Under the pieces are notes generated by a model. The model saw nothing but the letters and a program-made list of their open reading frames with translations, searched no databases and was not told the DNA's origin. A program made the position numbers and the translations under genes. Of a DNA stretch of 64,000 nucleotides, positions 2 through 49,420 are shown piece after piece; position 1 is the stretch's first letter; every line of letters begins with the position of its first letter. This DNA comes from a virus (lineage: Duplodnaviria > Caudoviricetes): positions 720 to 64,719 of IMG/VR virus record IMGVR_UViG_3300020120_000046; one strand, given 5' to 3'.

Positions 2-403
2 GTCATTCTCTGCCCCGGAGGATGGGGCTTTACCGTATTCGGGCTCAACATCGACAACGCCTTGTGGTGCGGGAATTTCGACCCAGCGCTCCATACCTTC
101 GCGGACGATGCGGAGCTAGCCCGGAACGGCATTGCCCGTGGGCTTATCTGGCGGATGCACTGCGACGTCTGGATCGAGCAGATGAACAACCGCTACGATC
201 CGGGCGGCATGAACTCCCTCTTTGGCGAGGACGTAGATAAGCGGCGCGAGTCTGAGAAGGACAACCTGACCCTCCTCTACTCGCGCTGGCCCGACTACGT
301 TGCTCCTCCAGACAAGAAATACCGGATGTCCTGGAGCAAGATGCTAACCGACTACATCCCGGACTGGAAGGCCCGGAGCGCTCTCCACGGAGGCTCGCTA
401 TGA
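2..403 (+). CDS. 5'-truncated ORF, probable C-terminus of a GT2-like glycosyltransferase
   Basis: Frame open from nt 2 (VILCPGGWGFTVFGLNIDNALWCGNFDPALHTFADDAELARNG). GNFDP..F.DD.EL resembles the GT-A 'GGFDE.F..ED.DL' segment. Confidence 0.45.
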   Translation, partial: VILCPGGWGFTVFGLNIDNALWCGNFDPALHTFADDAELARNGIARGLIWRMHCDVWIEQMNNRYDPGGMNSLFGEDVDKRRESEKDNLTLLYSRWPDYVAPPDKKYRMSWSKMLTDYIPDWKARSALHGGSL

Positions 404-644: not shown

Positions 645-692
645 CTCGGGTAGACTTGAGACGCAAGGCGAGGCGAGAGGCGAGGCGAAGTG
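645..692 (+). promoter_or_regulatory. sigma70/HrdB-type promoter (GGG-TAGACT) and GGCGAG-repeat leader for the helicase
   Basis: CTCGGG TAGACT TG at 651-656 is identical to the -10 context at 59320; followed by AAGGCGAGGCGAGAGGCGAGGCGAA-GTG. Confidence 0.6.
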
Positions 693-4307: not shown

Positions 4308-5456
4308 ATGACGGCGATAGATCTAGGGCTCCCTACAATCCGTACCTCGGAGCGCGCGGCCGCAAAGCGGTGCCCCTGGCGATGGTGGCAGGAATACCGG
4401 GAAGGCTGGCAGCCGCGCTATAGGCAAGCCGACGCACTCTGGTTCGGAATCGGCATTCACGAGGCCCTATCCCAGTGGTACCTAAAGGGCAAGCGGCGAG
4501 GCCCGCATCCGGCCGAGACGTTTGAGGCCTGGTGCGGCGACGAGATAGCCTATGCGAAGTCCTGGCTGGACGATAACTTTGAGGAGCCCGTCTGGTACGA
4601 GGCCAAGGACCTCGGAGTGACGATGCTAGAGGGATATGTGGACCTCTGGGGCAAGGACCCCCAGTGGTCCATCATTGCGACGGAGCAGCCATTCGCCGTT
4701 ACCATTACGAGCCATGGCCGGCCTGTGGCTATCTTCCGCTCGCGCTGGGATGGAGTATTCCGGGACCTCCGAAACGGTAAGGTCTACCTGCTCGAAACCA
4801 AGACGGCCTCATCCATCGATACGGCCTACCTTGAGCTTGACGATCAGGCCGGGAGTTACTGGGCCGTCGCAACCCTCCTCCTCCGCAAGGCCGGAGTCCT
4901 CAAGAAGGGCGAGGAGATTGAGGGCATCCAGTATAACTTCCTCCGCAAGAAGATGCCGGATGAGCGGCCGGTAAACGCTGACGGCCTCGCGACGAATACG
5001 CCGACAAAAGAGCATTACCTGGAAGCGCTCCAGCTAGCCGGTATCCGGTTTGTCGAGCAGTCGAGTCCAAAGAGCGGTCCGATCGCCATCGAGAAGGCCA
5101 AGGTTGGCGATCTCAAGGTAGCCGCTAACTTTGCCGGGCTTGAGGTATTCGGAGAGGTAAGCAAAGTCCAGCCCACTCCGCTATTTGAGCGGCCAGAGCC
5201 AATCCTCCGGTCAGGTCCGGAATGCGCCACTCAGCTCCAGCGGATTGCGGACGAAGTAGAGGTCATGAATGCCTACCGTCGCGGTGACCTCCCGCTCATA
5301 AAGACTCCGGCAAAAGACTGCCCGCGCTGTCCCTTGTGGGGTCCCTGCCGGCTCCACGAGCGCGGTAGCGATTCGTACCTGTCCGTACTAGAATCGAATT
5401 ACGTCCGGGTTGATCCCTATAAGGATGACCTGAAGAGCGCGAGCGGATACGCCTAA
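4308..5456 (+). CDS. Cas4/RecB-like PD-(D/E)XK exonuclease
   Basis: N-terminal KRCPWRW, DGVFRD...LLETKT catalytic motif, C-terminal CPRCPLWGPC (1+3 Cys Fe-S pattern). Confidence 0.85.
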   Translation: MTAIDLGLPTIRTSERAAAKRCPWRWWQEYREGWQPRYRQADALWFGIGIHEALSQWYLKGKRRGPHPAETFEAWCGDEIAYAKSWLDDNFEEPVWYEAKDLGVTMLEGYVDLWGKDPQWSIIATEQPFAVTITSHGRPVAIFRSRWDGVFRDLRNGKVYLLETKTASSIDTAYLELDDQAGSYWAVATLLLRKAGVLKKGEEIEGIQYNFLRKKMPDERPVNADGLATNTPTKEHYLEALQLAGIRFVEQSSPKSGPIAIEKAKVGDLKVAANFAGLEVFGEVSKVQPTPLFERPEPILRSGPECATQLQRIADEVEVMNAYRRGDLPLIKTPAKDCPRCPLWGPCRLHERGSDSYLSVLESNYVRVDPYKDDLKSASGYA

Positions 5457-5471: not shown

Positions 5472-6410
5472 ATGCCCCCAGCGAGGACCCCAGCATCTAC
5501 CCGTCCCAAGGCCGTCCAGCAGCGCCAGCGGCGGCAGACCGCGAAGCAGGAGGCGGAAGCTCCCCAGATGCTAATGGAGGCGACCGTTGAGATAACGGAA
5601 GTCCCCCTGGCTTATCACCAGCCTCCGGTCAAGATCCTCCTCTATGGCCCGCCCGGAGTCGGCAAAACCCGGCTAGCGGGTGGCGCGCCGCGAGCGGTAT
5701 TCCTCTCGACGGAGATTGAGGGTGCCGTCTCCGCAAAGGTAGCGGGCTCGCAAGCCCGGCTCTGGCCCGCGCCAACGTGGGAGCACGCCGTGGCCGGCGT
5801 CAAGAAGGGAGTCAAAGAGCTAGGCGAGGACGACTGGCTGATCGTGGACTCCGGAACGCGCATGCAGGAAATGTATATGCGCTGGATCCTCAAGACGATC
5901 AACGCCAAGAACCCGGCTCGCGACCTCGACATCCCGGCCATCAAGGACCACCAGAAGTACCAGAACGGATTCAAGCGCTGGGTCGATATGCTTATCGACG
6001 GCCCCATGAACGTCATCTTTATTTGCAACTCGATGAATGCGGAGGACGCGGAAGGCGAACCGCGCGTAATCCCCTTGCTGCTCGGCAAGAAGGGCGAGAT
6101 ATCCGACTACATTTCGGCTCAGTTCGGTATCGCGCTATATTACTCCGTAGCGCGTGAGTCGCGGGAGGCGGATGCGATAGGGCCGGAGATCGTCCGGCGA
6201 GTCCTAGCCCAGCCGTTCCCTCCGTGGTTCGCCAAGGACCGCTATGACGCTCTCGGAGCCTATCAGGACGTAGGCTACAAGGACGACACGGCGATGGCCC
6301 GGATGATTGACGACATCCAGAAAGCCCGGAAGGAAATTGGAAACCTCCCTGACCGTTCTAGCCGACCCAGACGTCCAGCCGGACGGGTGGCTGGTAAAAC
6401 ACGTCGGTAA
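5472..6410 (+). CDS. Sak4-like/AAA_24 RecA-fold ATPase (single-strand annealing)
   Basis: LLYGPPGVGKT Walker A, LIVDS Walker B; lies between an exonuclease and an SSB-like gene. Confidence 0.8.
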   Translation: MPPARTPASTRPKAVQQRQRRQTAKQEAEAPQMLMEATVEITEVPLAYHQPPVKILLYGPPGVGKTRLAGGAPRAVFLSTEIEGAVSAKVAGSQARLWPAPTWEHAVAGVKKGVKELGEDDWLIVDSGTRMQEMYMRWILKTINAKNPARDLDIPAIKDHQKYQNGFKRWVDMLIDGPMNVIFICNSMNAEDAEGEPRVIPLLLGKKGEISDYISAQFGIALYYSVARESREADAIGPEIVRRVLAQPFPPWFAKDRYDALGAYQDVGYKDDTAMARMIDDIQKARKEIGNLPDRSSRPRRPAGRVAGKTRR

Positions 6411-6509: not shown

Positions 6510-7403
6510 ATGCCAAAGCTACGCGATACTGCTGATCTCGACGTTGATGCCCTTGAGGCAGTCGAGTATTCCACTGAGCGCTATTCCGACTACGCGGGCG
6601 AGATCCCGCCCATCGGCCTGGAGCTTTCCGGCTACGTCAAGAAGATCTGGTGGACCCGGAGCGCCAACGACGATCCCATGCTCAAGGTCCTCTGGATCGC
6701 GGACGGAAACGAGGGTGACGCGGAGGAGTACAACGGCTGCCCGTTCTGGCTCAACGCCGCGCTCATCCCTGGCGCCAAGTTCCGCTGGGACCCGTTCCTC
6801 CTCGCGTACGGCCTCACGCTCCTGGAGGTCAAGACCAAAACGTACGTCGCGAAGGAAGAGGACTCCAAGGGATTCATCATCGAACGGATCGGCACCTGGA
6901 AGCCCGGAGCCGACCGGGACGAGGCCTGGTGCCGGATCATCACCGGCCAGGAGCCCTACAACGGCTCCATTCAGGCCATCGCAGAAGAATGGCTCCCCTG
7001 GGATTACGAGCCGGACGATGAGGAGCCGGATGATGTGGAGGACGAGGCCGACCCGGACGAGGACGAGCCAGAGGATGAGGAGCCGGACGAGGACGAGCCG
7101 GACGAGGACGAGGACGATGATGAGGACGAGCCGGACGAGGCTCCGGCCGTAACTCCGGCGCGAGCCCGCAGGGCTTCTGGCCGGGCGGCCGGTAGCGCTC
7201 GCGCTGCCCAGCCCGCTCGCGCCGCTAGGACGGCCTCTAAGCCCGCGAACGCGAAGACCGGGACGCGGACCCGCGCGAGCGCGGCTAAGGCCGCTCCGGC
7301 GCGTACGGCCCGCGCTAGCGCTACCTCCGGCCGGGCGGCCAAGACTCCGGCGCGGTCCACCCGGACTAAAAGGCGCGCAACCGACAACGACCCGCCATTC
7401 TGA
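6510..7403 (+). CDS. ssDNA-binding protein-like (DUF669-type position) with acidic tract and basic tail
   Basis: Follows Sak4-like gene; beta-rich N-domain, EPDE/D-rich tract, Ala/Arg tail, C-terminal DNDPPF resembling SSB tips. Confidence 0.65.
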   Translation: MPKLRDTADLDVDALEAVEYSTERYSDYAGEIPPIGLELSGYVKKIWWTRSANDDPMLKVLWIADGNEGDAEEYNGCPFWLNAALIPGAKFRWDPFLLAYGLTLLEVKTKTYVAKEEDSKGFIIERIGTWKPGADRDEAWCRIITGQEPYNGSIQAIAEEWLPWDYEPDDEEPDDVEDEADPDEDEPEDEEPDEDEPDEDEDDDEDEPDEAPAVTPARARRASGRAAGSARAAQPARAARTASKPANAKTGTRTRASAAKAAPARTARASATSGRAAKTPARSTRTKRRATDNDPPF

Positions 7404-7504
7404 GGATCTGGCGGCAACCGTCAAGCGGCTCCGTGAGGAGCTACATCAGGAGCTAATGGCCCAATCCTGGTCGGGAAAACGGCCAGGCTACTAGACGAGG
7501 AACC

Positions 7505-7648
7505 ATGACCGACTTCTCCAACCCGAACGGCGAGGATGGCGCAATGCCGAGCGTCGAGACTCTTGACCCATTCCTCTCCCGGCAGCCCAGCTCCATCGGG
7601 TTCTGCTCCTCGCCTCTCCCGAACAAGCACCAGATAGGCGATATCTAG
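7505..7648 (+). CDS. small hypothetical protein (47 aa)
   Basis: GAGGAACC-ATG; fills the gap before the oxidoreductase. Confidence 0.35.
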   Translation: MTDFSNPNGEDGAMPSVETLDPFLSRQPSSIGFCSSPLPNKHQIGDI

Positions 7649-7660
7649 GGAGGACCCGCC

Positions 7661-8482
7661 ATGTCCCGAGTAGTCATACTGGGATGTGGCCCGGCCGGAC
7701 TGGCGGCGGCTGCGGCCGCCGTCAGCTCCGGCCACGAGGCCATTATCATAAGCAATACTGACAAGCCATCGACGCAGTACGGAGCCCAGTACCTTCACGC
7801 TCCGGTTCCTGGATACGAGGACGTTCCCAAGGTCCGCGTTACCTACTCACTCAACGGTACGCCGGAGGAATACCGCAAGAAGGTCTACGGCGGACTGTGG
7901 ACCGGGAAGGTAAGCCCGGAGGACTTCGCCGGAGATCACGACGCCTGGGACATCCGCGCGACGTACGTGCGGCTCTGGGCCGACCTCATTAGCGGGCTCC
8001 GGGCCGGTCTCATCCAGAGGCAGATCAAGAATGGCGGCATCCCGTTTATCCGGAGCCTCCGGCCCGATCTAATCGTCTCAACCATTCCGGCTAAGGCCCT
8101 GTGCCAGAATCCGGGCCACGAGTTCCGGAGCCACGTGATCTACGCGGACGGCTCTACGTCATCCGTGACTATGCCGGACGATACGGTTATCTGTGACGGG
8201 ACGGAGGAGAATGCCTGGTACCGGATCAGTAGCGTGTTCGGGTACCGGACGACAGAATGGCCTGCCCGTCGCGTCCCTAGGCATTCCGGTGCAGTCCAGG
8301 TAGTCAAGCCGCTCTGGACCAACTGTAACTGCCACCCGGAAGTCCTCCGGGCCGGACGCTACGGGGCCTGGGAGAAAGCCCGGCTAGTCCACGAGGTATA
8401 CCCGGCCGTCCGCGAGGCCCTAGACGTCTGGAAGCATAAGGCCGGTACGGACCCGGAGGAGGAACGTCAGTGGAGGATGTAG
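7661..8482 (+). CDS. FAD-dependent oxidoreductase, UDP-galactopyranose-mutase/protoporphyrinogen-oxidase-like
   Basis: VVILGCGPAGL Rossmann motif, GAQYLH, C-terminal AGRYGAW. Confidence 0.7.
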   Translation: MSRVVILGCGPAGLAAAAAAVSSGHEAIIISNTDKPSTQYGAQYLHAPVPGYEDVPKVRVTYSLNGTPEEYRKKVYGGLWTGKVSPEDFAGDHDAWDIRATYVRLWADLISGLRAGLIQRQIKNGGIPFIRSLRPDLIVSTIPAKALCQNPGHEFRSHVIYADGSTSSVTMPDDTVICDGTEENAWYRISSVFGYRTTEWPARRVPRHSGAVQVVKPLWTNCNCHPEVLRAGRYGAWEKARLVHEVYPAVREALDVWKHKAGTDPEEERQWRM

Positions 8483-9141
8483 GGCCTTTCCGCTCGCGGG
8501 CTGACGCTCCGGTCGTGGCGCTTGACATCGACGGCACGATGGGGAACTATCACGCGCATTTCCTCTGGTTCGCCACCCACTGGTTTGGCCGGGAGTTCCC
8601 GCATCCCGAGGAGGTCAACCCCGGAATCCGGCTCTCCACCTTTATGGGGATTACCCACCGGGAGTACCGTGAGTGTAAGCTCGCCTACCGCCAGGGCGGC
8701 CTGAAGCGGTTTATGCCGGCGTACGAGGGAGCCGACCGGGTAACCCGGAGGATACGGAAGGCCGGAGCGCAGGTCTGGATCTGTACTACCCGGCCGTACC
8801 TCCGGCTAGACAACATTGACCCTGACACTCGCGAGTGGCTACGGCGGAACGGGATTCAGTATGACGCCGTGATCTGGGAAGGGATAGACGAGGACGATCC
8901 GACCAAGTATGCCGACCTCATTAATCAAGTCGGTACTGACCGGATCGTCGCCGTAGTTGAGGACCTCCCGGAGCAGATAGCCGACGCCCACAAGAACGGC
9001 ATTCAGACGGTCTATATGATGGACCAGCCGTATAACCGGGAGCCCGCGACTCCGGACGCATACCGCATTAGGGACCTAGATGAACTGTGGGGTAACCTAG
9101 AGGTAGACCTCAGTATCTGGTACGAGAACCACGGAGGCTAG
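8470..9141 (+). CDS. HAD-superfamily phosphatase (5'-nucleotidase/PNK-phosphatase-like)
   Basis: VVALDIDGT (DxD motif I), ICTTRP (motif II), VVEDLPEQI (motif IV). Confidence 0.8.
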   Translation: MEDVGPFRSRADAPVVALDIDGTMGNYHAHFLWFATHWFGREFPHPEEVNPGIRLSTFMGITHREYRECKLAYRQGGLKRFMPAYEGADRVTRRIRKAGAQVWICTTRPYLRLDNIDPDTREWLRRNGIQYDAVIWEGIDEDDPTKYADLINQVGTDRIVAVVEDLPEQIADAHKNGIQTVYMMDQPYNREPATPDAYRIRDLDELWGNLEVDLSIWYENHGG

Positions 9142-9142
9142 A

Positions 9143-9382
9143 ATGACAATGAAGGCAACGCTCCAGGAGCAAGCTGAGCTAATGGAAGAGGAGATAGCTC
9201 ATCTCCAGGATGAACTCCAAAAGGCTCGCGAGGAGCACGACAAGTTCGTCAACGAGTGCCTGGAGCGAATTCCGGAGAGCTACGACTGCGACGATGCCGG
9301 TGAGGCGATCGTCCTCAAGTTCATAGGGGACATGGATACGCTTGGCGGCCTCATCGCTAAGCTAACCTCTGGATTCCGCTAA
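9143..9382 (+). CDS. coiled-coil hypothetical protein
   Basis: ORF tightly packed between neighbours; heptad-like N-terminus. Confidence 0.55.
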   Translation: MTMKATLQEQAELMEEEIAHLQDELQKAREEHDKFVNECLERIPESYDCDDAGEAIVLKFIGDMDTLGGLIAKLTSGFR

Positions 9383-9386
9383 TCCC

Positions 9387-9578
9387 ATGCCTGCCCATTG
9401 CCCGTCCTGCGGCTCGCCGGAGCCCAGGCTCCATCCGGCCCTAGGTCCGGACGGCGAGGTAACCCGGATCTGCCAGGACAAGTTCCACGATGAGGAGCCA
9501 AGGCTCCGGCTAAGCCCGCACCTTGGCCTTTACCTCCATATACCAAAGAAGGCGAGACTAGACAATGACGAATCATGA
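9387..9578 (+). CDS. small CxxC hypothetical protein
   Basis: CPSC...C...H; packed between neighbours. Confidence 0.5.
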   Translation: MPAHCPSCGSPEPRLHPALGPDGEVTRICQDKFHDEEPRLRLSPHLGLYLHIPKKARLDNDES

Positions 9579-10572
9579 CCCGGAATCCTGCCCGTTCGGC
9601 CACATCGATGGAATGTGCGCCGGAGAGGAACTCCGGCTAACAACCGGCCGTACCGAAAGCAATGCCGAGTTCGATAACTGGCCCCAGGATGAAGCGGCTA
9701 CTGACCTGGTCCGGTGGGCCGACCGGGCGATGTTCCGGGCACAGCCGCTCGCGGAGGACGGCGAGCAGGTTCAGATATCCGTCTCCGTGGTCGATATGAC
9801 CCGGAACCCGCTCAAGGTAATGGCCGCTCCGTGGCTTGGCTACCGGGGACGTTTCGTCCTCCCGGATCAGGTGACGGACGAGGAAGCCCGCGCATTCGCG
9901 GCCGATGCCCTGAAGAGCAAGATTGCGGCCCCACTCGAATGGTGTCAGGTCGCGCTCCTGATCCAGGGAGTCTCCCGCGACTTTACCCATCAGATCGTCC
10001 GGCAGAGGACGGCGACATTCGTTCAGGAGTCGATGCGGTTCGCGGTAAAGGACCGGGCGGCCGACGAGGTACCGGAGCCGATCTCGATAGCCGGGCTCGC
10101 TGAGGATGACCCGCTCGCGAGGATCTGGCACGACCACGTGGCCCGGACCGGATGGGTCTACAACGCTCTCGTCCACGGCGGCATCCCGGCTGAGGACGCG
10201 AGGAAGGGCCTCCTGATCGGGACCACGACCCAGCTCCATTACCGGACGAATCTCCGGGACCTCATTAACCATGCCGGGCTCCGGCTCTGCTCCCAGGCCC
10301 AGGCCGAATGGAAGGAGGTCTGGAAGCTAATCGCCAAGGCCATCGGCAGCTACGGCCCGGAGGAGGACCGCTGGCAGCAGCAGGCGATCGTCAGGCTATT
10401 CAAGCCGGTCTGCTATTCGACCGGGAAATGCGAGTTCATGGGCGAGGCCGACCGCTGGTGCGTAATCCGCGACCGGGTAGAAGCGCATCACCGGAACGGC
10501 GACCGGCCGGAGGACTGGAACGACATCAATCCCCTGGAGCCGCTCCACCCGGAGTCCGCCCGTCGTGCCTGA
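9565..10572 (+). CDS. thyX: flavin-dependent thymidylate synthase (ThyX-like)
   Basis: THQIVRQRTATFVQESMRF (variant RHRx7S motif), NLRDL...LRLCSQAQAEW. Confidence 0.85.
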   Translation: MTNHDPESCPFGHIDGMCAGEELRLTTGRTESNAEFDNWPQDEAATDLVRWADRAMFRAQPLAEDGEQVQISVSVVDMTRNPLKVMAAPWLGYRGRFVLPDQVTDEEARAFAADALKSKIAAPLEWCQVALLIQGVSRDFTHQIVRQRTATFVQESMRFAVKDRAADEVPEPISIAGLAEDDPLARIWHDHVARTGWVYNALVHGGIPAEDARKGLLIGTTTQLHYRTNLRDLINHAGLRLCSQAQAEWKEVWKLIAKAIGSYGPEEDRWQQQAIVRLFKPVCYSTGKCEFMGEADRWCVIRDRVEAHHRNGDRPEDWNDINPLEPLHPESARRA

Positions 10573-10792
10573 TGCGGAGGAAGGCCCACGGGATATCTAC
10601 GGGAAGAGGCCTGCCATTACTATGTCCCAATGGGCCATCGAGACGCAAGCGGCGAGAGCCCGCCTAGAACGGGCCATTAAGCTCCATAAGTTCCTCGTCA
10701 AGGAAAGGGAAGCAAATGAGCGAAACCCCAGCCGGAAGCCAAGACCATTCCCAGTCAGTTACGGACCAGGAACCTTTGGTCCCTCTGGATAG
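10565..10792 (+). CDS. hypothetical protein
   Basis: ORF overlapping the thyX stop. Confidence 0.45.
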   Translation: MPDAEEGPRDIYGKRPAITMSQWAIETQAARARLERAIKLHKFLVKEREANERNPSRKPRPFPVSYGPGTFGPSG

Positions 10793-11051
10793 CCCAATCG
10801 TATTCGCCCACGTCGTGGCGGAGGCGATCCGGGAACTCATTGAGGAGTCCCACCTTCACGAGTGGGAAATCCTCGGCGTATATAATCCTCCTAGCCGTCC
10901 GGTAATCCACCCCCTGGCCCCGATGGCTGTCCCATCCACCTTTGTCCTAATCCGCTGCGGTTACTGTAACCTCCCGCAGTCGATTGAGCTAGAGGGAGTC
11001 TGGACGGAGGAACAGGTCATGAAGAAGATCATCAAGAACGAGGAACAGTAA
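10716..11051 (+). CDS. hypothetical protein with CxxC
   Basis: GGAAG RBS; LIRCGYCNLP. Confidence 0.55.
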   Translation: MSETPAGSQDHSQSVTDQEPLVPLDSPIVFAHVVAEAIRELIEESHLHEWEILGVYNPPSRPVIHPLAPMAVPSTFVLIRCGYCNLPQSIELEGVWTEEQVMKKIIKNEEQ

Positions 11052-11052
11052 A

Positions 11053-11412
11053 ATGGAATCGAACGAGAGCCACCGTGACGCCGCTTACGACTTCCTTAAG
11101 TCGGTCGGCCTAGAACCGAACCCGGACGCGGTAGGACAGCTCTCCGGCCCGTTTACGGACGCTCTAGCGATCATCTGTGAGCGCGGCTATACCCGGCCGG
11201 ACGAGGACGGCTCGTCATTCTTCTGGCAGCGGCGCGGATGGAAGGGCCTCGTCCACGACATCCTTGACAACGCCTTCCGGCTCCAGCTGTTCTCCTGGAA
11301 GCAGAATGAGTACTATGAGAATGGCGCAGTCGACCTCATCAACTTCGCTGGCTTCTATATGCGGCTCCGGAACAAGGGCTCAAAGTGGGGCGACATGGGA
11401 GAGCCCGGATGA
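11053..11412 (+). CDS. Nmad1/DUF1599-like all-alpha NTP-pyrophosphatase-fold protein
   Basis: ICERGY...GWKGLVHDILDNAFRL...GAVDLINFAGFY matches the DUF1599 pattern (DYG...RL...DL.NY). Confidence 0.55.
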   Translation: MESNESHRDAAYDFLKSVGLEPNPDAVGQLSGPFTDALAIICERGYTRPDEDGSSFFWQRRGWKGLVHDILDNAFRLQLFSWKQNEYYENGAVDLINFAGFYMRLRNKGSKWGDMGEPG

Positions 11413-11777
11413 CTGACGGCAACGGATTCACAGACAAGCTCCCGCCCCACAAAGACCCACGGCTCCCGGCCGCAGCCATCCTTATCGGCCGGACCGGCGC
11501 AACGGAGTTCGGGCTCCGCTACTGCGACGAGGAGCAGCCAACGGTCTGGATCGCCTATGGCAAATGGCACGACATCTGGGAATGCGCGGCCGGGATGGAT
11601 GCCCTTGTGGCGACCTTCCGGCTCTGTGATCAGGTCATCGACGGCGGCAAATGTACGCACTGCGGCCGTCCGACCGGGTTTATCAGCGACTATGATGCCC
11701 GGCCTCCGTTCCAGCTCGTGTGCTGGTATGCGTACGACCGGAGGAAGAAAGAGTTCGTACGAGGCTGCGGCGGATAG
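11409..11777 (+). CDS. hypothetical protein with CxxC
   Basis: ATGA overlap; GKCTHCGRPT. Confidence 0.6.
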   Translation: MTDGNGFTDKLPPHKDPRLPAAAILIGRTGATEFGLRYCDEEQPTVWIAYGKWHDIWECAAGMDALVATFRLCDQVIDGGKCTHCGRPTGFISDYDARPPFQLVCWYAYDRRKKEFVRGCGG

Positions 11778-11786
11778 GCGACCCTA

Positions 11787-12725
11787 ATGGCGATGCGTTT
11801 CGTTAACCTCCACCATCATACGACGTTCAGTTTCGGGGACGGCTTTGGGCCGGTAGCCGATCATGTGGCGCGAGCGGTGGAGCTTGGCTATTACGCAATC
11901 GCCGCGACGGAGCACGGGAACGTCTCCTCGCACTTCCAGCTGGAGGCTCACGCGCTCCGGGCCGGTATAAAGCCGCTGTTCGGCCTTGAGGCTTATACCG
12001 GCCCGTTAGACGAGGGACGCCGCTCTCAGTGTAAGTATCACCTAACCATAATCGCGGAGAATACCCATGGCTATCAGAACCTCAACCGGATCGTCAGCCA
12101 GTCCTACCTTGACAGTTATTACCATCCAACCGTCTCCGGCGAGTCTCTTGCCGCGAATGCGGATGGGCTTGTGGTCATGTCAGGGTGTACCGGAAGCCTT
12201 CTTGCCTGCTCGCTCGTTGGCGGGAAGGGCATCCCAGAACCGGCCTCCCGCGACGGCTACGCCTGGGATGACGCGCGCCTCGTTATCTCGCGCTTCCTCC
12301 GGCTATTCGGGAGTGAGCGGTTCTTTCTGGAAGTCCAGCCATTCTGGGAGCTAGAGAAATCCCGCGCAATCAATACGGCCTATGCGAAGCTCGCCCGCGA
12401 GTTCGGCATTCGTATGGTCGTAACGAATGACGTCCATTACCCGCATCCGGATGACTCTGAAATGCAGGCAATCCTCCACGCGGTCCGGCGCGGTAAGCAT
12501 ACCGTTGAGGAGGCAATGCGGGAATGGAATTATGAGGTCCCGATGACGCTCCCGGAGTCCGACCGGGCTCTAGGCGAGCGGCTCCTGAAGACCGGCCTGA
12601 CACGGGACGAGGCCTGGGGAGCAATCTGCGCCTCGCGCGACATAGCGGAAATGTGTACGGTAAAGCTACCAAAGGCGGAACGACTCCGCTACCCAATAAG
12701 CCCGGAAGACCTCAAGCCATGGTAG
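11787..12725 (+). CDS. dnaE: DNA polymerase III alpha, stand-alone PHP domain (N-terminal piece)
   Basis: LHHHTTFSFGDG, ATEHG, GLEAY, YHL, SGC, TNDVHY; ends just after the PHP (KLPKAERLRYP). Confidence 0.92.
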   Translation: MAMRFVNLHHHTTFSFGDGFGPVADHVARAVELGYYAIAATEHGNVSSHFQLEAHALRAGIKPLFGLEAYTGPLDEGRRSQCKYHLTIIAENTHGYQNLNRIVSQSYLDSYYHPTVSGESLAANADGLVVMSGCTGSLLACSLVGGKGIPEPASRDGYAWDDARLVISRFLRLFGSERFFLEVQPFWELEKSRAINTAYAKLAREFGIRMVVTNDVHYPHPDDSEMQAILHAVRRGKHTVEEAMREWNYEVPMTLPESDRALGERLLKTGLTRDEAWGAICASRDIAEMCTVKLPKAERLRYPISPEDLKPW

Positions 12726-12964
12726 ACCGGCTGCGCTATGACGGCCCTAAAGGCCAGAGCTATTCAGAGCTGATGAGCGGGAAGAGGCTACGGGCAAACG
12801 CTCTAGACCTCGCGAGCGGGATGCTTGTAACGCTAGCTGGGTATGACGAGGAGTCGGCCTGGCCGCTGATTGAATGGACCGATGGGAGCGGGTCGGCCCG
12901 GATCACGACAATAGACCCAGTAATGTTCGCGGAATTCTTCGCCCCAGTAATAGAGGAGTGGTAA
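12719..12964 (+). CDS. small beta-rich protein, paralog of 34886-35155
   Basis: ATG overlaps the PHP stop; ALDL..G..V...W.L..W.D..G..RIT.IDP..FA..F..V shared with the head-module gene. Confidence 0.65.
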   Translation: MVDRLRYDGPKGQSYSELMSGKRLRANALDLASGMLVTLAGYDEESAWPLIEWTDGSGSARITTIDPVMFAEFFAPVIEEW

Positions 12965-13476
12965 TGACTCAGTGGGATCACCCATACAACCTGATCGGCA
13001 TGCTAAGGCTCGGAGCCGACCGGCCGCTAGTCGCGGACTGGATCCCGGACGGAGACGGCCTTACGCTTAACCTCGGAGCCGGGAACAAGCTGATCCGGAA
13101 TTCCGTGGCCCTAGACCTCCCGAAGTGGGATGCGGACATCGACCCCATCCCCTACCGCGACGGAGCCGTCACGACGATCTACGCGCTCCACTTCTTCGAG
13201 CACGTCAGGCATCCGATCAATCTCCTGCGCGAATGCCAGCGGGTCCTTAAGCCCGGAGGCCATCTCAACATCGTGGTCCCCCACTGGAATACCCAGCTCG
13301 CGCATTCCGACCTCGACCACAAGAGCTTCTGGGACGAGGAAACCTGGAGCCGAATCCTCGCCAACGACTACTATGAGAAGAACCACGACGGCTGGGAATT
13401 CCATATCGGGACGAACGTCCTTATGGGAATTGCCGCCCGGAACCTCCTAATCGTCACCCAGCTGATTAGGGACTAG
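12964..13476 (+). CDS. class I SAM-dependent methyltransferase (Methyltransf_11-like)
   Basis: LNLGAG, IPYRDGAVTTIYALHFFEHV, LLRECQRVLKPGG.L.IVVP. Confidence 0.85.
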   Translation: MTQWDHPYNLIGMLRLGADRPLVADWIPDGDGLTLNLGAGNKLIRNSVALDLPKWDADIDPIPYRDGAVTTIYALHFFEHVRHPINLLRECQRVLKPGGHLNIVVPHWNTQLAHSDLDHKSFWDEETWSRILANDYYEKNHDGWEFHIGTNVLMGIAARNLLIVTQLIRD

Positions 13477-13478
13477 CC

Positions 13479-13718
13479 GTGAATGACCGCGATACCGGAT
13501 TCTGGATCCAGGACAAGGAAGGGCTCTGGTGGCAGCTAATGCCGGCCGGACCCTACCCGGAGCCGCGCGAGCTTAGCCAGGAAGAGCGGGCCACTGCCGC
13601 CTGGAGCTATATGCGATCTAGGCTCGCGCCGAAGATCGATCAGATATACATCCAGGCCGGGAAATATGAGACGTATATCCGCAATAGCCCGGAGGACTAT
13701 TCCGAAGGCATGACGTAA
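13479..13718 (+). CDS. hypothetical protein
   Basis: ORF packed after the methyltransferase. Confidence 0.55.
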   Translation: MNDRDTGFWIQDKEGLWWQLMPAGPYPEPRELSQEERATAAWSYMRSRLAPKIDQIYIQAGKYETYIRNSPEDYSEGMT

Positions 13719-13734
13719 AGGATAATGGCCGGGG

Positions 13735-13992
13735 ATGAACAAGATACGCACGAGGCTCCTGGAGCTATTTATGGAAGAGCTACGGCTCCGTGAACAGCTT
13801 ACCGGGAGGGATAGACTTACCCTCTATCATCAGTTCAGGGAAGTCCTAGAGCAGCCAGAAGGGAATGGGCCTGATGCCGACACCGTACCTGAGATACCAG
13901 TCCCGTGTGAGATTCCCTCCGCGCGTGTGGGGTCCTATACCGACCCGGTCGCAGCCGCTCTCTACCAGTCTTCAGATCACCGCCATTCCTGA
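13735..13992 (+). CDS. hypothetical protein
   Basis: ORF with GGGGA RBS directly before the DnaE core gene. Confidence 0.5.
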   Translation: MNKIRTRLLELFMEELRLREQLTGRDRLTLYHQFREVLEQPEGNGPDADTVPEIPVPCEIPSARVGSYTDPVAAALYQSSDHRHS

Positions 13993-14006
13993 TAGGGGAT
14001 CGCACT

Positions 14007-16307
14007 ATGCGTAACGTCCTCGCGGATACCTCGGAGATAGCGGCCGAGGAACTCCTGTGGCGCTGGTGCCGGTATGGCTGGAACTTCCGCCAGATCGGAA
14101 AGAAGCCACAGGCGGTCCAGGACTGGCACGGAGCCCGGATCAAGCGCGAGATGGATATGATCCTCGGCAAGAAGCTCCCTGACTTCTTTCTGTTTACCTC
14201 GGATACGATCCGCTGGGCCAAGGACAACGGCGTGGTTATCGGTCCGGGCCGTGGGTCGACTGCGGCTAGTGACGTCGCGTACCTAACCCGGATTACGGAG
14301 GTAGACCCGCATAAGTACCCAAGCATGATCTTTGAGCGCTTCCTTGACGTTACCCGGCACGACCCGCCCGACATTGATGTCGACTGCTCGGACGAGCAGC
14401 GCTATATGGTCCGGGATTACCTCGCCTATAAGTATGGCGCGGCCTGCGTAGGCCATATCGGGAACTTCATCAAGTACAAGGCTAAGAACTCGCTCAAGGA
14501 TATCGGCCGGGTATACCAGATACCGATGTGGGCCATAGAGACGATCGCTAACCTTGCGATTGAGCGGAGCGGTGGCGACTCGCGGGCCGACGCTACGCTG
14601 ACGGATACCTTTGAGATGTTCCCGTCCGCTCGCGAGGTTCTAGAGCAGTTCCCGGACATCCTAAAGGCCGCGCGGCTTGAAGGCAATTACCGGGGCCTGT
14701 CGATCCACGCCTGTGGCCTTATGGTAGCGAACTCCCCGCTGACCGACGTCTGTGCGGTCTATACCGGGAAGGACGGCGAGCAGGTAGCCTCCATTGATAA
14801 GATTGACGCGGAGTACATTGAGGCGCTCAAGCTTGACTTCCTAGGGCTCTCGACTCTAGGCATTATTGCCCGCTGCCTCCGGATGGCCGGCCTAACGCTC
14901 GCAGACCTCTATGCGATCCCGGATACGGACGAGAGCGCGCTCAACGTATTCCGGAAGAATGACCTTGTCGGCATCTTCCAGTTTGCCGGCCGCGCTACCC
15001 GTCTCGTTAACCGGGACGTAGCGCCGGAGGACTTCTGGCATATCGTCTGTATTAATGCGCTCAGCCGTCCGGGTCCTCTGTTCTCCGGGCAGACGGCGGA
15101 ATTCATAGAGGTCCGGCACGGCCGGGCCATCCCGACCTCGCTCCACCCGATTGTGGATGAGATCACCAAGGACACGTACGGCCAGATGATCTTTCAGGAG
15201 CATATCCTCCGGTGTCTCAAAGAGATCGGTAATCTTGACTGGACTAACGTCCATCATATCCGTCGCATTATCGCGAAGAAATCCGGCCAGGCGGCATTCC
15301 AGCAGAACTTCGATGCCTTCGCTCAGGGAGCGGCCGACCTCCACGGAATCGAGCACGAGCTAGCCGACCAGATCTGGCACCGCCTCGTAACGGCCGGGAC
15401 CTATGCCTTCAACGTAGCGCACGCCGTCAGCTATTCCCTCCTCGCGTTCTGGACCGCCTGGCTCAAAGCCCACTACCCGCTAGAGTTCTATGCGGCCTGC
15501 CTCCAGAAGGCGACCGGCGACAAGGAACTGACATTCCGGCTCCAGCGCGATGCGCTCGCGCACTCGATTGATATCAAGCCGCCGCAGCTAGGGATTAGCA
15601 CTCAGACCTGGACGCCGCATTACGAGATCAACGACAAGCGGCCGGAGCTAAGCCGCATGGAGCTGGTTGCGGGCTGGTCGGCCGTTCCGGGGATCGGAGC
15701 GGCTAAGGCTCCCGCGCTCGCGGAGCGCGCCGCTACGGCCCTAGAGTGGAAGGACCTAACGGAGGTCCCCGGCATCGGTGACAAGACCGTAGAGACGATC
15801 CGGCGTTTCTCCGGAGCCCGTGACCCGTTCGGGCTCTACCGGACGGAGCGCAAGCTAAAGGCCGTCCACCGCTGGCTGAAGGCCCAGAAGGCCATCCCGC
15901 TCCCGACCCACGACGGAAACGCGCTAGCCATTATGAAGGTCCCGGACTGGAGGCAGAACGGAGGCCGGTTTACCCCTGGCCCGCTCGTGGTTTACTTTGG
16001 GGTAGTAAGGCGAGTCGAGTACAAGGACGTCATAGAGGACGAGCGGAGCCGGACGGGCGAGGAGATAGAGGAGATCATCAAGAGGCTTAAGCGCCCGGAC
16101 CTCGCGAAGCGCGCAACGCTTCATATGTACGACACCAGCGATGAGGAGGTTTACGCCCGTGTTAACAGATGGCGTTTCCCAGAGCTAGTAAGTACGCTAG
16201 AGCGAATCCGCATCAACAATGATGTAGTGGTAATCCTGGGGAACCGTATAGCCGGGTTTGGTACCCCAATCCGAACCGAACGAATTTGGGTAATAGACCC
16301 AGCCTAG
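14007..16307 (+). CDS. dnaE: DNA polymerase III alpha catalytic core (palm/thumb/fingers/HhH/OB; C-terminal piece)
   Basis: GPGRGSTAAS, FERFL, PPDIDVD, IHACG, KLDFLGL, GIFQF, YAFNVAHAVSY, KAHYPLEFY. Confidence 0.95.
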   Translation: MRNVLADTSEIAAEELLWRWCRYGWNFRQIGKKPQAVQDWHGARIKREMDMILGKKLPDFFLFTSDTIRWAKDNGVVIGPGRGSTAASDVAYLTRITEVDPHKYPSMIFERFLDVTRHDPPDIDVDCSDEQRYMVRDYLAYKYGAACVGHIGNFIKYKAKNSLKDIGRVYQIPMWAIETIANLAIERSGGDSRADATLTDTFEMFPSAREVLEQFPDILKAARLEGNYRGLSIHACGLMVANSPLTDVCAVYTGKDGEQVASIDKIDAEYIEALKLDFLGLSTLGIIARCLRMAGLTLADLYAIPDTDESALNVFRKNDLVGIFQFAGRATRLVNRDVAPEDFWHIVCINALSRPGPLFSGQTAEFIEVRHGRAIPTSLHPIVDEITKDTYGQMIFQEHILRCLKEIGNLDWTNVHHIRRIIAKKSGQAAFQQNFDAFAQGAADLHGIEHELADQIWHRLVTAGTYAFNVAHAVSYSLLAFWTAWLKAHYPLEFYAACLQKATGDKELTFRLQRDALAHSIDIKPPQLGISTQTWTPHYEINDKRPELSRMELVAGWSAVPGIGAAKAPALAERAATALEWKDLTEVPGIGDKTVETIRRFSGARDPFGLYRTERKLKAVHRWLKAQKAIPLPTHDGNALAIMKVPDWRQNGGRFTPGPLVVYFGVVRRVEYKDVIEDERSRTGEEIEEIIKRLKRPDLAKRATLHMYDTSDEEVYARVNRWRFPELVSTLERIRINNDVVVILGNRIAGFGTPIRTERIWVIDPA

Positions 16308-16318
16308 GGAGAAAAGCG

Positions 16319-16600
16319 ATGACTACAGTTCAGGACCACAACGCTCCGGTAAAGCCTGAGCCGGAGATTGCCCGCGTACCGCATCCAGATGACATGGATC
16401 TGGAACTATTCATCAAGCACTTTGCGGCGAGGCACGCGGACTCTCTCCCAGAGGACTACCGGCTATCATCAGTCAACATGACTCCGTACGTGGAGGACTG
16501 CTGGCGACGTTTTCACGAGCGGCTCCACCGGCTCCGGACGGGGCCCAACGGCGGGTACGAGCACGAGCACAAGATCCCGACTTCAAGGGGCAAGAAATGA
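16319..16600 (+). CDS. hypothetical protein
   Basis: GGGAGAAAAGCG-ATG. Confidence 0.6.
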   Translation: MTTVQDHNAPVKPEPEIARVPHPDDMDLELFIKHFAARHADSLPEDYRLSSVNMTPYVEDCWRRFHERLHRLRTGPNGGYEHEHKIPTSRGKK

Positions 16601-16848
16601 CTGAGGAAGAGGATGCCCTAGCCCGGCTCGCGGCAGGCTACAAGGCCCAGCGCGCGGACGGCGACCCTACCCGGACAGAGTACGGATTCATGATAATCCT
16701 TACCTGCCCGAATACGATGGACCGGGAGGCTGTGGAGCGCGACCTCCGTAGCTCCCTCGGGTTTGGCCAGCCGGTCATCGCGCTCCTGTACGATGTCCCG
16801 GCTCCGCGCCCCATAGAGGTGGCCAGGACCACCGGCGCGCGGCTCTAG
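16597..16848 (+). CDS. hypothetical protein
   Basis: ATGA overlap. Confidence 0.55.
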   Translation: MTEEEDALARLAAGYKAQRADGDPTRTEYGFMIILTCPNTMDREAVERDLRSSLGFGQPVIALLYDVPAPRPIEVARTTGARL

Positions 16849-16865
16849 GAAGCTCCCTAGCCCGT

Positions 16866-16905
16866 CCGGGCTCCGGACCCTAGTCCTAGGCCGTCCGGAG
16901 CCCGG
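16866..16905 (+). terminator. GC-rich hairpin ending the replication operon
   Basis: CCGGGCTCCGGAC / GTCCGGAGCCCGG 13-bp stem. Confidence 0.55.
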
Positions 16906-17065
16906 AGAGGCCCGGAGGATCGCTCTCCGCTCGCTCGCGGGCTCTCCGGGCCGGATTCGCCGTCCGCGACCGTCCCGGATCGCTGCTGCCCCTAGCGTTT
17001 CCCTCCATTCCGGGCTAGGGTCAGCCCCGTCAGCGGGAGGCTCGCCAGGCGACGGAGGCGAGATA

Positions 17066-17527
17066 ATGACCAGAGGTAATCACTCCGACCTCATATCAGA
17101 TACTGGCCCGTGGTATAACCCGCGAGGCCGCGACACCCTTAGCCCATCAATCCTTAGCAGACCGGCTCCAGGCCATCAGCCCGGACGCCATAGACGTAAC
17201 GGAGTCCCAGAGGTAATCGACATACCACAGCCCGCGAGGAAGATTCGGCCAAAGTACATCGTAGCCGCAACGCTGACGGCACTCCTCGCGGTTCCTGCTT
17301 TCTGGATGGCGGACTACATAGCGACGCACGACGGACCGGGAACGGTCCCGGAGGTAACCCGGACGGCCTACCTGCCGATGACCCTCTACGGGAACGGACT
17401 GCAGGAACCAATCTGCGTATTCATCACGCAGTCCGGGAAGGCCTGGAAAGCCTGGGCGGTCAACTCACCCTGCGAAGTGGCATTGGGACAAGCGGGTCCG
17501 GCCCATCTGCCGTCCGCTGGATCATAG
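17066..17527 (+). CDS. single-TM membrane protein (start uncertain)
   Basis: YIVAATLTALLAVPAFWMA hydrophobic segment; converges on the late operon. Confidence 0.45.
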   Translation: MTRGNHSDLISDTGPWYNPRGRDTLSPSILSRPAPGHQPGRHRRNGVPEVIDIPQPARKIRPKYIVAATLTALLAVPAFWMADYIATHDGPGTVPEVTRTAYLPMTLYGNGLQEPICVFITQSGKAWKAWAVNSPCEVALGQAGPAHLPSAGS

Positions 17528-18086
17528 CCCCATAGACCGGCCCTGGCTTCCGGCCGGGCTTCTGCCAGACTCCCCGGAACGGAGCCCGGTAATAGCAGGT
17601 CCACTGATAGGGCTTGACGGCCGCATATGCGGAGACAAGGACGGCCCTAGGACGCATCCGTGCCATAACCTCATTCTCCCACTGAACCTCGTACTCGTCA
17701 TCCTTGAACGGCCGGGCCGTATAGACAATGTCCGCGTCCTCCCAGGGCGGGTGCGATTCCCGGAGGTCCCACTCAATCGCATTTACGCCCAGCGCGAGTG
17801 CCATGGCTAGGTAGTCCTTATTGATCTCATAGCCGTACTCGCTCATCCCGAAGTGATAGCGGGCGAGGTATTCCTTTGTGCCGATGCCACTTCCGGCCTC
17901 CATAAGCGTCAGCCTACGGAGGCCGTCCATGGCGAGCGAGCGCGCGACCTCCAGCATCCGCGCGAACTCTGCTATCTCAAGCGGGCTCCAGCGCCACATT
18001 TCCGGGTCCGGCTCCGATAGCTCCCGCTCTTTGGCGAGCTGAGCCATCTCAAGTTTGTGAAGCTCCGGGAGAGATAGCATTCCCAC
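17460..18086 (-). CDS. class I SAM-dependent methyltransferase
   Basis: LMEAGSGIG (motif I), YGYEIN (motif II), DIVYTARPF (motif IV-like). Confidence 0.7.
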   Translation of the reverse strand: MGMLSLPELHKLEMAQLAKERELSEPDPEMWRWSPLEIAEFARMLEVARSLAMDGLRRLTLMEAGSGIGTKEYLARYHFGMSEYGYEINKDYLAMALALGVNAIEWDLRESHPPWEDADIVYTARPFKDDEYEVQWENEVMARMRPRAVLVSAYAAVKPYQWTCYYRAPFRGVWQKPGRKPGPVYGAMIQRTADGPDPLVPMPLRRVS

Positions 18087-47192: not shown

Positions 47193-47735
47193 ATGACGAC
47201 GCCAACGCTACACGTCCTCGGGATAGACCCTGGCGGGACGACTGGATGGGTACTGCTGACCGTCTCGCGGCTCGCTATCTTTGCGGGCGAGGCTCCGGAG
47301 ATCCTTGAGTGGGACTACGGCGAGCTGACCGGCCCGGAGCCGCGACAGGCGACTGAGATAGCCCAGATGTGCCGCGAGATACAGGGACTCGACTACAAGA
47401 CCGGACCGGCCGTCATGTCGGAGGCCTGGACGGCCGACCCCACCTTTCATTCGACGGACCAGGAGCAGTATAGCCCTATCCGGATTAATGCCCAGCTTGA
47501 GCTTCTTCACTTTCAGGGCAAGATGGGTGACTCGACGCTCCACTTCCAGCCCCGGACGATTAAGGCCGGCAAGGGAGTCCGCGACGACAAGCTCAAGCGG
47601 CTCGGCATTTATGTCCCCGGCTCCCAGCATATTCAGGACGGGGCCAAGCACGCGCTCAATACGCTCCGGCGAGCCCGCGAGTCCTTTGACTTCGCTCTTG
47701 AGCTTTGGCCCTATCCGGCCAGCGGCCTGCCCTAG
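47193..47735 (+). CDS. RuvC-like Holliday junction resolvase
   Basis: VLGIDPGGTTG, VMSE, HIQDGAKH. Confidence 0.75.
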   Translation: MTTPTLHVLGIDPGGTTGWVLLTVSRLAIFAGEAPEILEWDYGELTGPEPRQATEIAQMCREIQGLDYKTGPAVMSEAWTADPTFHSTDQEQYSPIRINAQLELLHFQGKMGDSTLHFQPRTIKAGKGVRDDKLKRLGIYVPGSQHIQDGAKHALNTLRRARESFDFALELWPYPASGLP

Positions 47736-47836
47736 ATTCCGTTACCGTATCGTTATCGTCCTCCGGTAACCCATTCATGGTCATAGCGCGTCCCCTAGAT
47801 AGCGCGGAACGTCCGCGCCGATAGGGAGGGACATTC

Positions 47837-48529: not shown

Positions 48530-48623
48530 GCCCTGGACGGCCAGCCCGCCATGGCCGTCCCTCCGCGAGCCCGGCCGGATGTCCGCTGTCCGGCCGGGCT
48601 CCCTGTGTCAGGAGGACATTACT

Positions 48624-48725
48624 GTGAAACGCTTCCGGGCCTTCCTCCGCGCGGTAAGATTCCGGTACCGCAAGGAACTCAGCCGATACGAGAGGACGGA
48701 GCCTATGCCCAAGGCTGAAGTCTAG
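48624..48725 (+). CDS. small basic peptide (33 aa)
   Basis: AGGAGGA RBS + GTG. Confidence 0.4.
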   Translation: MKRFRAFLRAVRFRYRKELSRYERTEPMPKAEV

Positions 48726-48768
48726 ACATTCGTTACCAGCCTCATGCCGGGGCAAGAGAGAGGCGAAA

Positions 48769-49383: not shown

Positions 49384-49420
49384 CCCTTACTGGTGCGGAC
49401 CAGGTAGTTCGCAGCTCGCC

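Follow-up and report, generated by a model that had tools for sequence, protein, structure and literature searches.

A conserved flavoprotein–phosphatase–ThyX-like gene trio in the DnaE-type replication module of a soil actinophage and its possible link to partial DNA glycosylation

In the replication arm of a soil actinophage, three genes encoding a flavoprotein, a HAD phosphatase and a divergent ThyX-like enzyme are located beside the split gene for a DnaE-type DNA polymerase. We analysed a window of 64,000 nucleotides, corresponding to bases 720-64719 of the 64,719-bp IMG/VR record IMGVR_UViG_3300020120_000046, which represents a complete genome (direct terminal repeats; estimated completeness 100%; GC content of the window ~62%). 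An earlier reading of this DNA, hereafter called the original prediction, had assigned the genes at positions 7661-13476 to a candidate pathway for the hypermodification of DNA or virions. Our analysis favours a different view of this stretch, which is not a self-contained hypermodification operon but probably supplies nucleotides within a replication module of the DnaE type. Considering the trio together with a glycosyltransferase (GT) gene at the left genome end, we tentatively propose that the three enzymes act on pyrimidine nucleotides and that the GT, an optional partner, acts on DNA, such that the phage DNA would carry a glycosylated base but be glycosylated at most in part. We regard this reading as quite possible, if somewhat short of probable. 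The genes on which it is based are the following:

7661-8482, plus strand: flavin adenine dinucleotide (FAD) protein of 273 amino acids, phrog_8720 ('oxidoreductase'); Rossmann matches and AlphaFold (AF2) model
8470-9141, plus strand: predicted HAD phosphatase of the NT5C type (PF06941, phrog_415)
9565-10572, plus strand: ThyX-like flavoenzyme of 335 amino acids (PF02511)
2-403, plus strand: 3' part of the gene for a TAGT-family GT-A glycosyltransferase; whole gene at genome positions 301-1122 (L083:301-1122), 273 amino acids

The flavoprotein, the phosphatase and the ThyX-like enzyme

We compared 80 IMG/VR loci and those of the cultured phages Chill (Mycobacterium) and Gibson (Streptomyces), giving a set of 82 loci. 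The HAD gene directly follows the flavoprotein gene in 78 of them, with the remaining four being cut by contig ends, and the pair is always situated between Cas4/AAA_24 and DnaE. A ThyX-family gene was present in each of the 30 flavoprotein-positive records that were searched whole, including all 21 with a completeness of at least 90%, and in Microbacterium phage Erudite the flavoprotein and ThyX-like genes are direct neighbours. This adjacency and the invariable co-occurrence identify the three genes as a fixed core. In the genome studied here, the GTG start codon of the HAD gene, found downstream of the ribosome-binding site GGAGGAGG, overlaps the flavoprotein stop codon by 13 nt, and the two genes are translationally coupled. 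The clustering around dnaE that had been described earlier thus holds insofar as the genes flank the two halves of dnaE, but they do not make up one operon. The flavoprotein family extends to at least 126 cultured phage records from Gordonia, Microbacterium, Mycobacterium, Streptomyces, Arthrobacter and Nocardia. Irrespective of the GT, few unexplained gene sets next to the polymerase of DnaE-type actinophages are as conserved as this trio, and its presence in cultured phages of Mycobacterium, Gordonia, Microbacterium and Streptomyces makes its function open to direct study.

The first gene of the trio had been proposed to encode an FAD enzyme resembling UDP-galactopyranose mutase (UGM). Its identity as an FAD enzyme is confirmed: sequence matches are limited to FAD Rossmann families (phrog_8720 itself carries no known function), the GxGxxG Rossmann motif (GCGPAG, residues 8-13) is invariant in 46 sequences, and an AF2 model based on 46 homologues (pLDDT 94) displays the two-domain flavoprotein fold common to UGM, monooxygenases of the p-hydroxybenzoate hydroxylase (PHBH) type, protoporphyrinogen and amine oxidases and D-amino-acid oxidase. 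Resemblance to UGM, however, is one of several equal possibilities. In a structure comparison (VIA), UGMs reached the highest Z-scores, with 15.1 (rmsd 3.7, 256 aligned) and 14.0, followed by MHPCO (14.0), PPO (13.4) and DAAO (13.2), and the UGM alignment covered 240 of 365 residues. The GLF hidden Markov model (HMM; PF03275) retrieved nothing at E<=10 from the whole 64.7-kb genome, while it did match in control genomes. Moreover, with 273 amino acids the protein is shorter than the 11 UGMs fetched (364-384 amino acids), and its size, the hhalign alignment, in which UGM positions ~100-165 are unmatched, and the VIA comparison all indicate the absence of the ~100-residue helical uridine-binding domain of UGM. 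Against a profile of 11 bacterial UGMs, hhalign returned a probability of 82.9% (score 47.5), whereas the PHBH-type (95.3%, 66.3) and amine oxidase (95.3%, 67.0) controls ranked higher; with all three profiles, the confident alignment was confined to the first 35-40 residues, i.e., the Rossmann segment. At low stringency, hhalign also paired YG.QYLH, WYR and GRYG.W with the UGM consensus motifs YGPHIFHT, TR and GRL..Y. We therefore rejected UGM specificity, because the 83% hhalign probability and the three motif pairings were outscored by the PHBH-type and amine oxidase controls. In Atlas, a protein language model, the nearest named clusters are viral GLF proteins (0.93, 174/256).

A PDB sequence search with the flavoprotein, conducted with the single sequence and the profile, matched the Rossmann segment alone. 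At E<1e-30, a profile search of 1.84 billion representatives yielded at least 563 representative (50%-identity) clusters of the family, whose members saturated the search and left no view of remote relatives. When single genomes representing 185,579 prokaryote species were scanned by pattern, no convincing cellular homologue emerged; the two loci returned were a short contig of a metagenome-assembled genome and a PAS histidine kinase, a false positive. Judged from these searches, the family is virus-only. Its members share four invariant Cys residues (C148, C178, C222, C224) and many invariant Arg, Lys, Tyr, Trp and His residues, and the invariant basic and aromatic positions would fit a phosphorylated ligand.

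The assignment of the second gene to the HAD phosphatases in the original prediction is borne out by PF06941 (29.4 bits; cut-off 24.8) and by the nucleophile motif DxDxT, which is present as DIDGT (D19-I-D21-G-T23). The best PHROG is phrog_415, a polynucleotide kinase/phosphatase family (phosphatase domain), and the PDB contains no sequence relative. We predict that the product is an NT5C-type phosphatase with a deoxynucleoside monophosphate (dNMP) as its substrate.

The divergence of ThyX, likewise noted previously, proved to be pronounced. The Thy1 domain is unmistakable (PF02511, 96.8 bits; cut-off 24.8), but the protein stays below the NCBIfam thyX equivalog cut-off (TIGR02170; 74.2 vs 87.9 bits). 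When a family profile of 25 sequences was aligned to ThyX of T. maritima, the signature motif read RQRTA..QES.RF (family consensus RQRTA[TVA]), with RQR instead of RHR, and Leu or Ile took the place of the folate-stacking residue His53, so that the equivalents of both His53 and His79 are lost in this family. The pattern R-x-R...S-x-R[Y/F/W] was recovered in 47 of the 56 loci checked; all but three of these read RQR and none RHR. By contrast, the dUMP-binding residues are retained, since S156, R158, R213 and R240 are invariant and correspond to S88, R90, R147 and R174 of the T. maritima enzyme. Judging by these features, the gene encodes a divergent, non-canonical ThyX. The protein is additionally extended at both its N and C termini, and its C-terminal part has a conserved Cys cluster, in which C283, C289 and C299 are invariant and C242 is nearly so. 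The Cys sets of the flavoprotein and of the ThyX-like tail could each bind Zn or an Fe-S cluster.

The glycosyltransferase and a proposed route to glycosylated DNA

The gene fragment at 2-403 had been described as GT2-like. Inspection of the genes upstream of the window, as the original prediction had advised, completed it in the full record and showed that it is indeed the 3' part of a glycosyltransferase gene, albeit one of the TAGT family, with a product of 273 amino acids. The gene is the second open reading frame (ORF) from the left genome end, directly upstream of the SNF2 helicase gene. The Pfam TAGT HMM (PF20691) matches with 32.7 bits (gathering cut-off 27.5), spanning residues 7-96 only; it is matched by 31 of 37 members of the GT family, GT2 also by just five. 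Moreover, phrog_842 ('beta-glucosyl-HMC-alpha-glucosyltransferase') was hit with an E-value of 6e-5. The AF2 model (pLDDT 93) has a GT-A fold in a PDB comparison, with GalNAc-T as the top match (Z 16.7). In BFVD, the best structural matches, over the full length, are TAGT-domain proteins and a T-even-type beta-glucosyl-HMC-alpha-glucosyltransferase, with the TAGT matches (TM 0.58-0.68, ~300 columns) ranking ahead of generic GT2 proteins. A DDD motif (D94, D95, D96) is invariant or nearly so in the family, whose median isoelectric point is 8.6. The second glucosyltransferase of the T6 type has been placed in the TAGT Pfam family, members of which act on DNA-linked sugars in T6-like phages (PMC13390438).

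Of 35 related records, 14 carry the GT gene. It is missing from Chill and Gibson and from 16 relatives with a completeness of 90% or more, and a tblastn search of the 50,697 phage records detected no match to it in any cultured phage. Wherever present, it resides in the replication arm, in distant relatives between the genes for the SNF2 helicase and the Cas4 nuclease. Given its family and its unvarying location among the replication genes, DNA is the most likely substrate of the GT. This enzyme is the strongest point in favour of the idea that sugars are attached to the phage DNA, although it lies outside the region for which that idea was originally put forward. Two relatives deserve mention. 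Locus L019 (436-2054) contains two tandem GT copies, each ~49% identical to the GT of this phage, and in G004 (the record of L032; G004:C1:60860-62235) a divergent TAGT-type GT (E 1e-36) is located 39 bp from a homologue of the methyltransferase described below, which is the sole place where a GT and the methyltransferase adjoin.

The properties of the trio suggest that its substrates are pyrimidine dNMPs, because the ThyX-like enzyme keeps the nucleotide-binding residues of ThyX without its folate/NADPH- and flavin-handling histidines, the flavoprotein has invariant basic and aromatic residues and the phosphatase is of the deoxynucleotidase type. In the pathway we envisage, the ThyX-like enzyme would add a one-carbon or oxygen function at C5, yielding either dTMP or a C5-oxidised dUMP or dCMP, with the flavoprotein feeding it reducing power or itself oxidising the nucleotide and the HAD phosphatase removing unwanted dNMP. 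The GT, where present, would then transfer a sugar to the phage DNA after replication, at a fraction of sites, and the resulting DNA would be partly glycosylated at most, without global shielding from restriction enzymes. A bolder version, which we consider distinctly unlikely, holds that the trio provides a ThyA-superfamily-independent route to a C5-oxidised (hydroxy- or hydroxymethyl-) pyrimidine, a base that a TET-less TAGT GT would then tag with sugar in the DNA. If it were true, hundreds of actinophages, including easily grown phages of Mycobacterium smegmatis, would carry an unrecognised modified base. Should the DNA be glycosylated, a TAGT-type DNA sugar transferase operating without TET/JBP or a ThyA-type synthase would imply an unknown route to the acceptor base.

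Other genes of the genome

The replication arm comprises plus-strand genes from window position 1 to ~17,000, with the structural genes on the minus strand. The further features identified are:

690-2639, plus strand: SNF2 helicase (Pfam)
4308-5456, plus strand: PD-(D/E)XK/Cas4-like nuclease (Pfam)
5472-6410, plus strand: AAA_24 ATPase (Pfam)
11053-11412, plus strand: 119-amino-acid protein (p119) with weak resemblance to Nmad1/DUF1599 (Atlas, hhalign)
11787-12725, plus strand: DnaE PHP-domain ORF, first half of the split polymerase (PF02811, 116 bits)
12653-12964, plus strand: 103-amino-acid ORF in the dnaE gap, its end sharing one base with the methyltransferase start (TAATG)
12964-13476, plus strand: class-I S-adenosylmethionine (SAM) methyltransferase of 170 amino acids inside the dnaE gap (Methyltransf_11, phrog_6636)
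14007-16307, plus strand: DnaE catalytic core ORF (PF07733 and PF17657)
17460-18086, minus strand: 208-amino-acid ORF at the end of the minus-strand late genes (EAGSGIG motif only)
62130-62771: 213-amino-acid early protein ending in a DUF6011 domain (41.9 bits)

The gene order of the block 690-6410 matches that of Chill, Gibson and the 80 IMG/VR loci. A near-identity DNA search with window positions 7000-17000 gave no match in the 50,697 phage records. Rfam and tRNA scans of the window were empty, so no intron accounts for the gap in dnaE, and the 103-amino-acid ORF in the gap has no Pfam match. The same split into a PHP and a core ORF, with the small methyltransferase gene filling the gap, occurs in five metagenomic relatives (L004, L014, L025, L038 and L082); in the cultured phage Erudite, DnaE is likewise split (gp55/gp56), with a gap of merely 10 bp (L085:8287-11635). 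Among ten early-region ORFs (47193-62771), the DUF6011 domain in the 62130-62771 protein was the only Pfam match.

The SAM methyltransferase was recognised correctly by the original prediction. The protein matches Methyltransf_11, 23, 12 and 25 and phrog_6636, and its nearest types, UbiE and the sterol methyltransferases, place it by sequence among the small-molecule-type methyltransferases and not among the DNA methylases. The TAATG overlap and a GAGGAG ribosome-binding site indicate that its true start is probably 12964. It is a sporadic, optional gene, present at varying positions in 11 of the 82 loci and in 10 of 36 records, four of the latter, including Chill, being devoid of the GT; a Fisher test showed no significant link between it and the GT (P=0.14). 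Two other assignments could not be substantiated. The ORF at 17460-18086, suggested to be a second methyltransferase, gave no Pfam, PHROG or NCBIfam match, its EAGSGIG sequence resembling SAM-binding motif I. As for p119, which had been likened to Nmad1/DUF1599, the corresponding HMM (PF07659) did not match at E<=10. Atlas relates p119 to DUF1599 clusters (0.92, 191/256 shared features), and hhalign aligned a profile of 29 p119 sequences with 13 Bacteroidota DUF1599 sequences at a weak probability of 5.9% (score 25, P=0.0064; reversed null P=0.97). The gene is present in 28 of the 82 loci. Literature searches yielded nothing on Nmad1 or on what the oxidoreductase/ThyX-like pair of actinophages does.

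Alternative explanations and known systems

Several observations weigh against the notion that the trio and the GT generate a glycosylated base. As far as its sequence reveals, the genome encodes no known enzyme for making an acceptor base. The complete genome gave no match to TET/JBP (PF12851), the C5 DNA methylases (PF00145) or the ThyA family (PF00303), nor to thymidylate kinase (PF02223), dCMP deaminase (PF00383) or dUTPase (PF00692); the methylase result concerns the C5 domain, since the N6/N4 methylase families got no separate search. ThyA-family enzymes are the source of 5-hydroxymethylcytosine (hmC), 5-hydroxymethyluracil (hmU) and 5-hydroxycytosine (hoC) in known pathways. In addition, ThyX proteins of the His-less type are found in PB1-like Pseudomonas phages that lack the flavoprotein, which suggests that the enzyme may simply be a working thymidylate synthase, and the trio occurs without this GT in 126 cultured phage records. 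The flavoprotein-HAD pair is also present in 21 of the 35 related records that lack the GT, 16 of them at least 90% complete. Since so many GT-less phages have these genes, they are not dedicated suppliers of sugar. GT-A enzymes, moreover, are versatile, and the acceptor of the GT is not readable from its sequence.

The restriction-site counts point in the same direction. The abundance of short palindromes noted previously holds for CCGG (1254 copies; observed/expected ratio (O/E) 1.32) and GGCC (O/E 1.18), which are mildly enriched; CTAG is as frequent as expected (O/E 1.05), and TCCGGA (72 copies) exceeds its mononucleotide expectation but falls below its Markov expectation (160). We rejected CCGG and GGCC abundance as a signal of protection, because it is an effect of composition (62% GC, O/E 1.2-1.3) and 6-mers containing these sites are absent. 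Restriction-type sites are in fact strongly avoided:

CCCGGG: 0 observed, 58 expected
CCGCGG: 0 observed, 58 expected
GAGCTC: 0 observed, 21 expected
ACCGGT: 2 observed, 21 expected
ACGCGT: 1 observed, 21 expected
CTCGAG: 1 observed, 21 expected
TGCA (4-mer): 26 observed, 221 expected

Summed over all 64 six-base palindromes, the O/E is 0.63, compared with 1.01 for non-palindromic 6-mers. The avoided sites include GC-only and T-containing ones, which makes it very unlikely that a bulky base takes the place of all C or all T. In 20-kb loci of relatives, the palindrome O/E is 0.75 +/- 0.08 with and 0.79 +/- 0.07 without the GT; with avoidance this similar, nothing indicates that the GT eases restriction pressure. 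The relatives avoid overlapping sets of sites (CCGCGG, GGGCCC, GCCGGC, GGCGCC), a hint that these sets may reflect the restriction enzymes of the host. Given that the genome behaves as if under full restriction pressure, possession of a GT from a DNA-modifying family is not enough to infer restriction-proof DNA.

These findings lend some weight to an explanation without any non-canonical base, which we consider possible but on the whole doubtful. The stretch would then serve plain nucleotide supply, with the ThyX-like protein acting as a working thymidylate synthase variant, the flavoprotein as an accessory redox enzyme and the phosphatase as a salvage or pool-balancing dNMP nucleotidase or a polynucleotide 3'-phosphatase, whereas the GT and the methyltransferase would be unrelated accessory genes acting on protein or small molecules. 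The palindrome avoidance shared by GT-containing and GT-less relatives, the missing TET/JBP, ThyA-type enzyme and dNMP kinase, the PB1-like phages with the same ThyX type, the retained dUMP-binding residues and the best PHROG of the phosphatase ('polynucleotide kinase', phosphatase domain) all fit this explanation, as do the many cultured phages in which the trio is annotated simply as oxidoreductase, phosphatase and ThyX-like thymidylate synthase. It accounts less well for a GT that is always found among replication genes and whose family, by HMM and fold, has members acting on DNA, as characterised or judged by context (PMC13390438), for the loss of the folate-stacking His in a protein below the equivalog cut-off, and for a virus-only flavoprotein fixed beside a nucleotidase, which plain dTMP synthesis leaves unexplained. 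A related idea, limited to the trio, would fit both a glycosylated base and plain supply: the flavoprotein could re-reduce the flavin of the His-less ThyX-like enzyme, possibly via Cys-bound metal centres in both proteins, to form a two-component thymidylate synthase. The complete co-occurrence in the records searched, the adjacency of the genes in Erudite and the close clade, the conserved Cys residues (four invariant in the flavoprotein, three invariant and one near-invariant in the ThyX-like tail) and the loss of the His53 and His79 equivalents are in line with this arrangement. We nevertheless consider it unlikely, as PB1-like phages possess this ThyX type but no flavoprotein, and in nine of the 30 records the partner of the flavoprotein is another ThyX subtype that matches more weakly.

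The pathway envisaged in the original prediction, in which the flavoprotein is a UDP-sugar pyranose-furanose mutase, the GT adds the furanose to a modified pyrimidine and the methyltransferase methylates the sugar, appears very unlikely to us. The general idea of sugar on DNA has gained a TAGT-family GT, but the furanosyl and methylated parts are unsupported. UGM does achieve the highest structural Z-scores, viral GLF proteins make up the nearest named clusters in Atlas, motifs pair with UGM at low stringency, a divergent GT and the methyltransferase are adjacent in G004, and there is a precedent for a phage mutase combined with a DNA GT (bioRxiv 10.1101/2025.06.16.659550). These points are opposed by the missing GLF match and helical uridine-binding domain, by the higher hhalign ranks of the PHBH-type and amine oxidase profiles, by the flavoprotein-HAD pairs in GT-less related and cultured phages, and by the insignificant association of the methyltransferase with the GT. 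We see even less scope for the glycosylation of virion or other proteins, in which the GT would decorate structural proteins rich in Ser and Thr, as happens in some mycobacteriophages. Protein O-glycosyltransferases do occur among the GT-A enzymes, and the top PDB fold match is GalNAc-T. However, TAGT-type and T-even DNA-type GTs come before generic GT2 proteins in the comparison with viral structures, and this alternative is without specific support because the GT is encoded in the early, plus-strand replication arm, far from the minus-strand structural genes, and in relatives between helicase and nuclease.

Our preferred reading, i.e., a nucleotide-level trio combined with an optional DNA GT, can be compared with several known systems. 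Among them are the cultured actinophage modules of the type 'oxidoreductase - phosphatase - ThyX-like - DnaE-like polymerase', as found in the Mycobacterium cluster with PBI1, Plot and Chill and in phages of Gordonia, Microbacterium (Erudite) and Streptomyces (Gibson). They contain the same genes in the same order, with 40-49% identity of the flavoprotein and the phosphatase, but differ in that no homologue of this GT exists among the 50,697 phage records. Like canonical ThyX from T. maritima and M. tuberculosis, the ThyX-like enzyme has a Thy1 domain with the conserved Gln, Arg, Ser-x-Arg and two downstream dUMP-binding Arg residues, but it differs in its RQR motif, the Leu or Ile at the position of His53, the extra terminal regions with their Cys cluster and its score below the equivalog cut-off. 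Similarly, the flavoprotein shares with UGM (Glf, PF03275) an FAD Rossmann and a beta-sheet domain and the highest structural Z-score, while lacking a GLF match and the helical domain and being no closer to it than to PHBH-type and amine oxidase profiles.

Of the systems described so far, the TAGT/T6-type DNA glycosyltransferases and the pathways to glycosylated 5-hydroxycytosine come nearest. With the beta-glucosyl-HMC-alpha-glucosyltransferases of T2 and T6 and the TET-associated glycosyltransferases, the GT has in common the TAGT HMM, the GT-A fold with its DDD motif and the best viral structural matches, although here the HMM covers the N-terminal 90 residues and the genome is without TET/JBP, a C5-methylase or an hmC/hoC synthase. 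The pathways for hmC in T-even phages, hmU in SPO1 and hoC in RB69 combine a ThyA-superfamily enzyme with a dNMP kinase and the exclusion of the canonical dNTP, for none of which a counterpart was matched in this genome. Pathways to glycosylated 5-hydroxycytosine have been described for RB69, DLP3 and RL38JI, and a phage UDP-galactofuranose mutase has been proposed in the Pootjesviridae (Lee et al., bioRxiv 10.1101/2025.06.16.659550); for the Rhizobium phage RL38JI, a DNA GT, a phage sugar mutase and C5-hydroxylated cytosine have been proposed together (bioRxiv 10.1101/2025.06.16.659550). The logic of these pathways is alike, with oxidation of the pyrimidine at C5 on the nucleotide level, post-replicative DNA GTs and a proposed mutase with a furanose donor, and a flavin has been noticed with the 5-hydroxy-dCMP (5hodCMP) synthase (bioRxiv 10.1101/2025.06.16.659550). 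They are unlike the present locus in their use of ThyA-superfamily synthases, in the complete replacement of cytosine and in their highly restriction-resistant DNA, whereas this phage has no ThyA homologue or TET, possesses a flavoprotein that is not demonstrably a UGM and avoids restriction sites.

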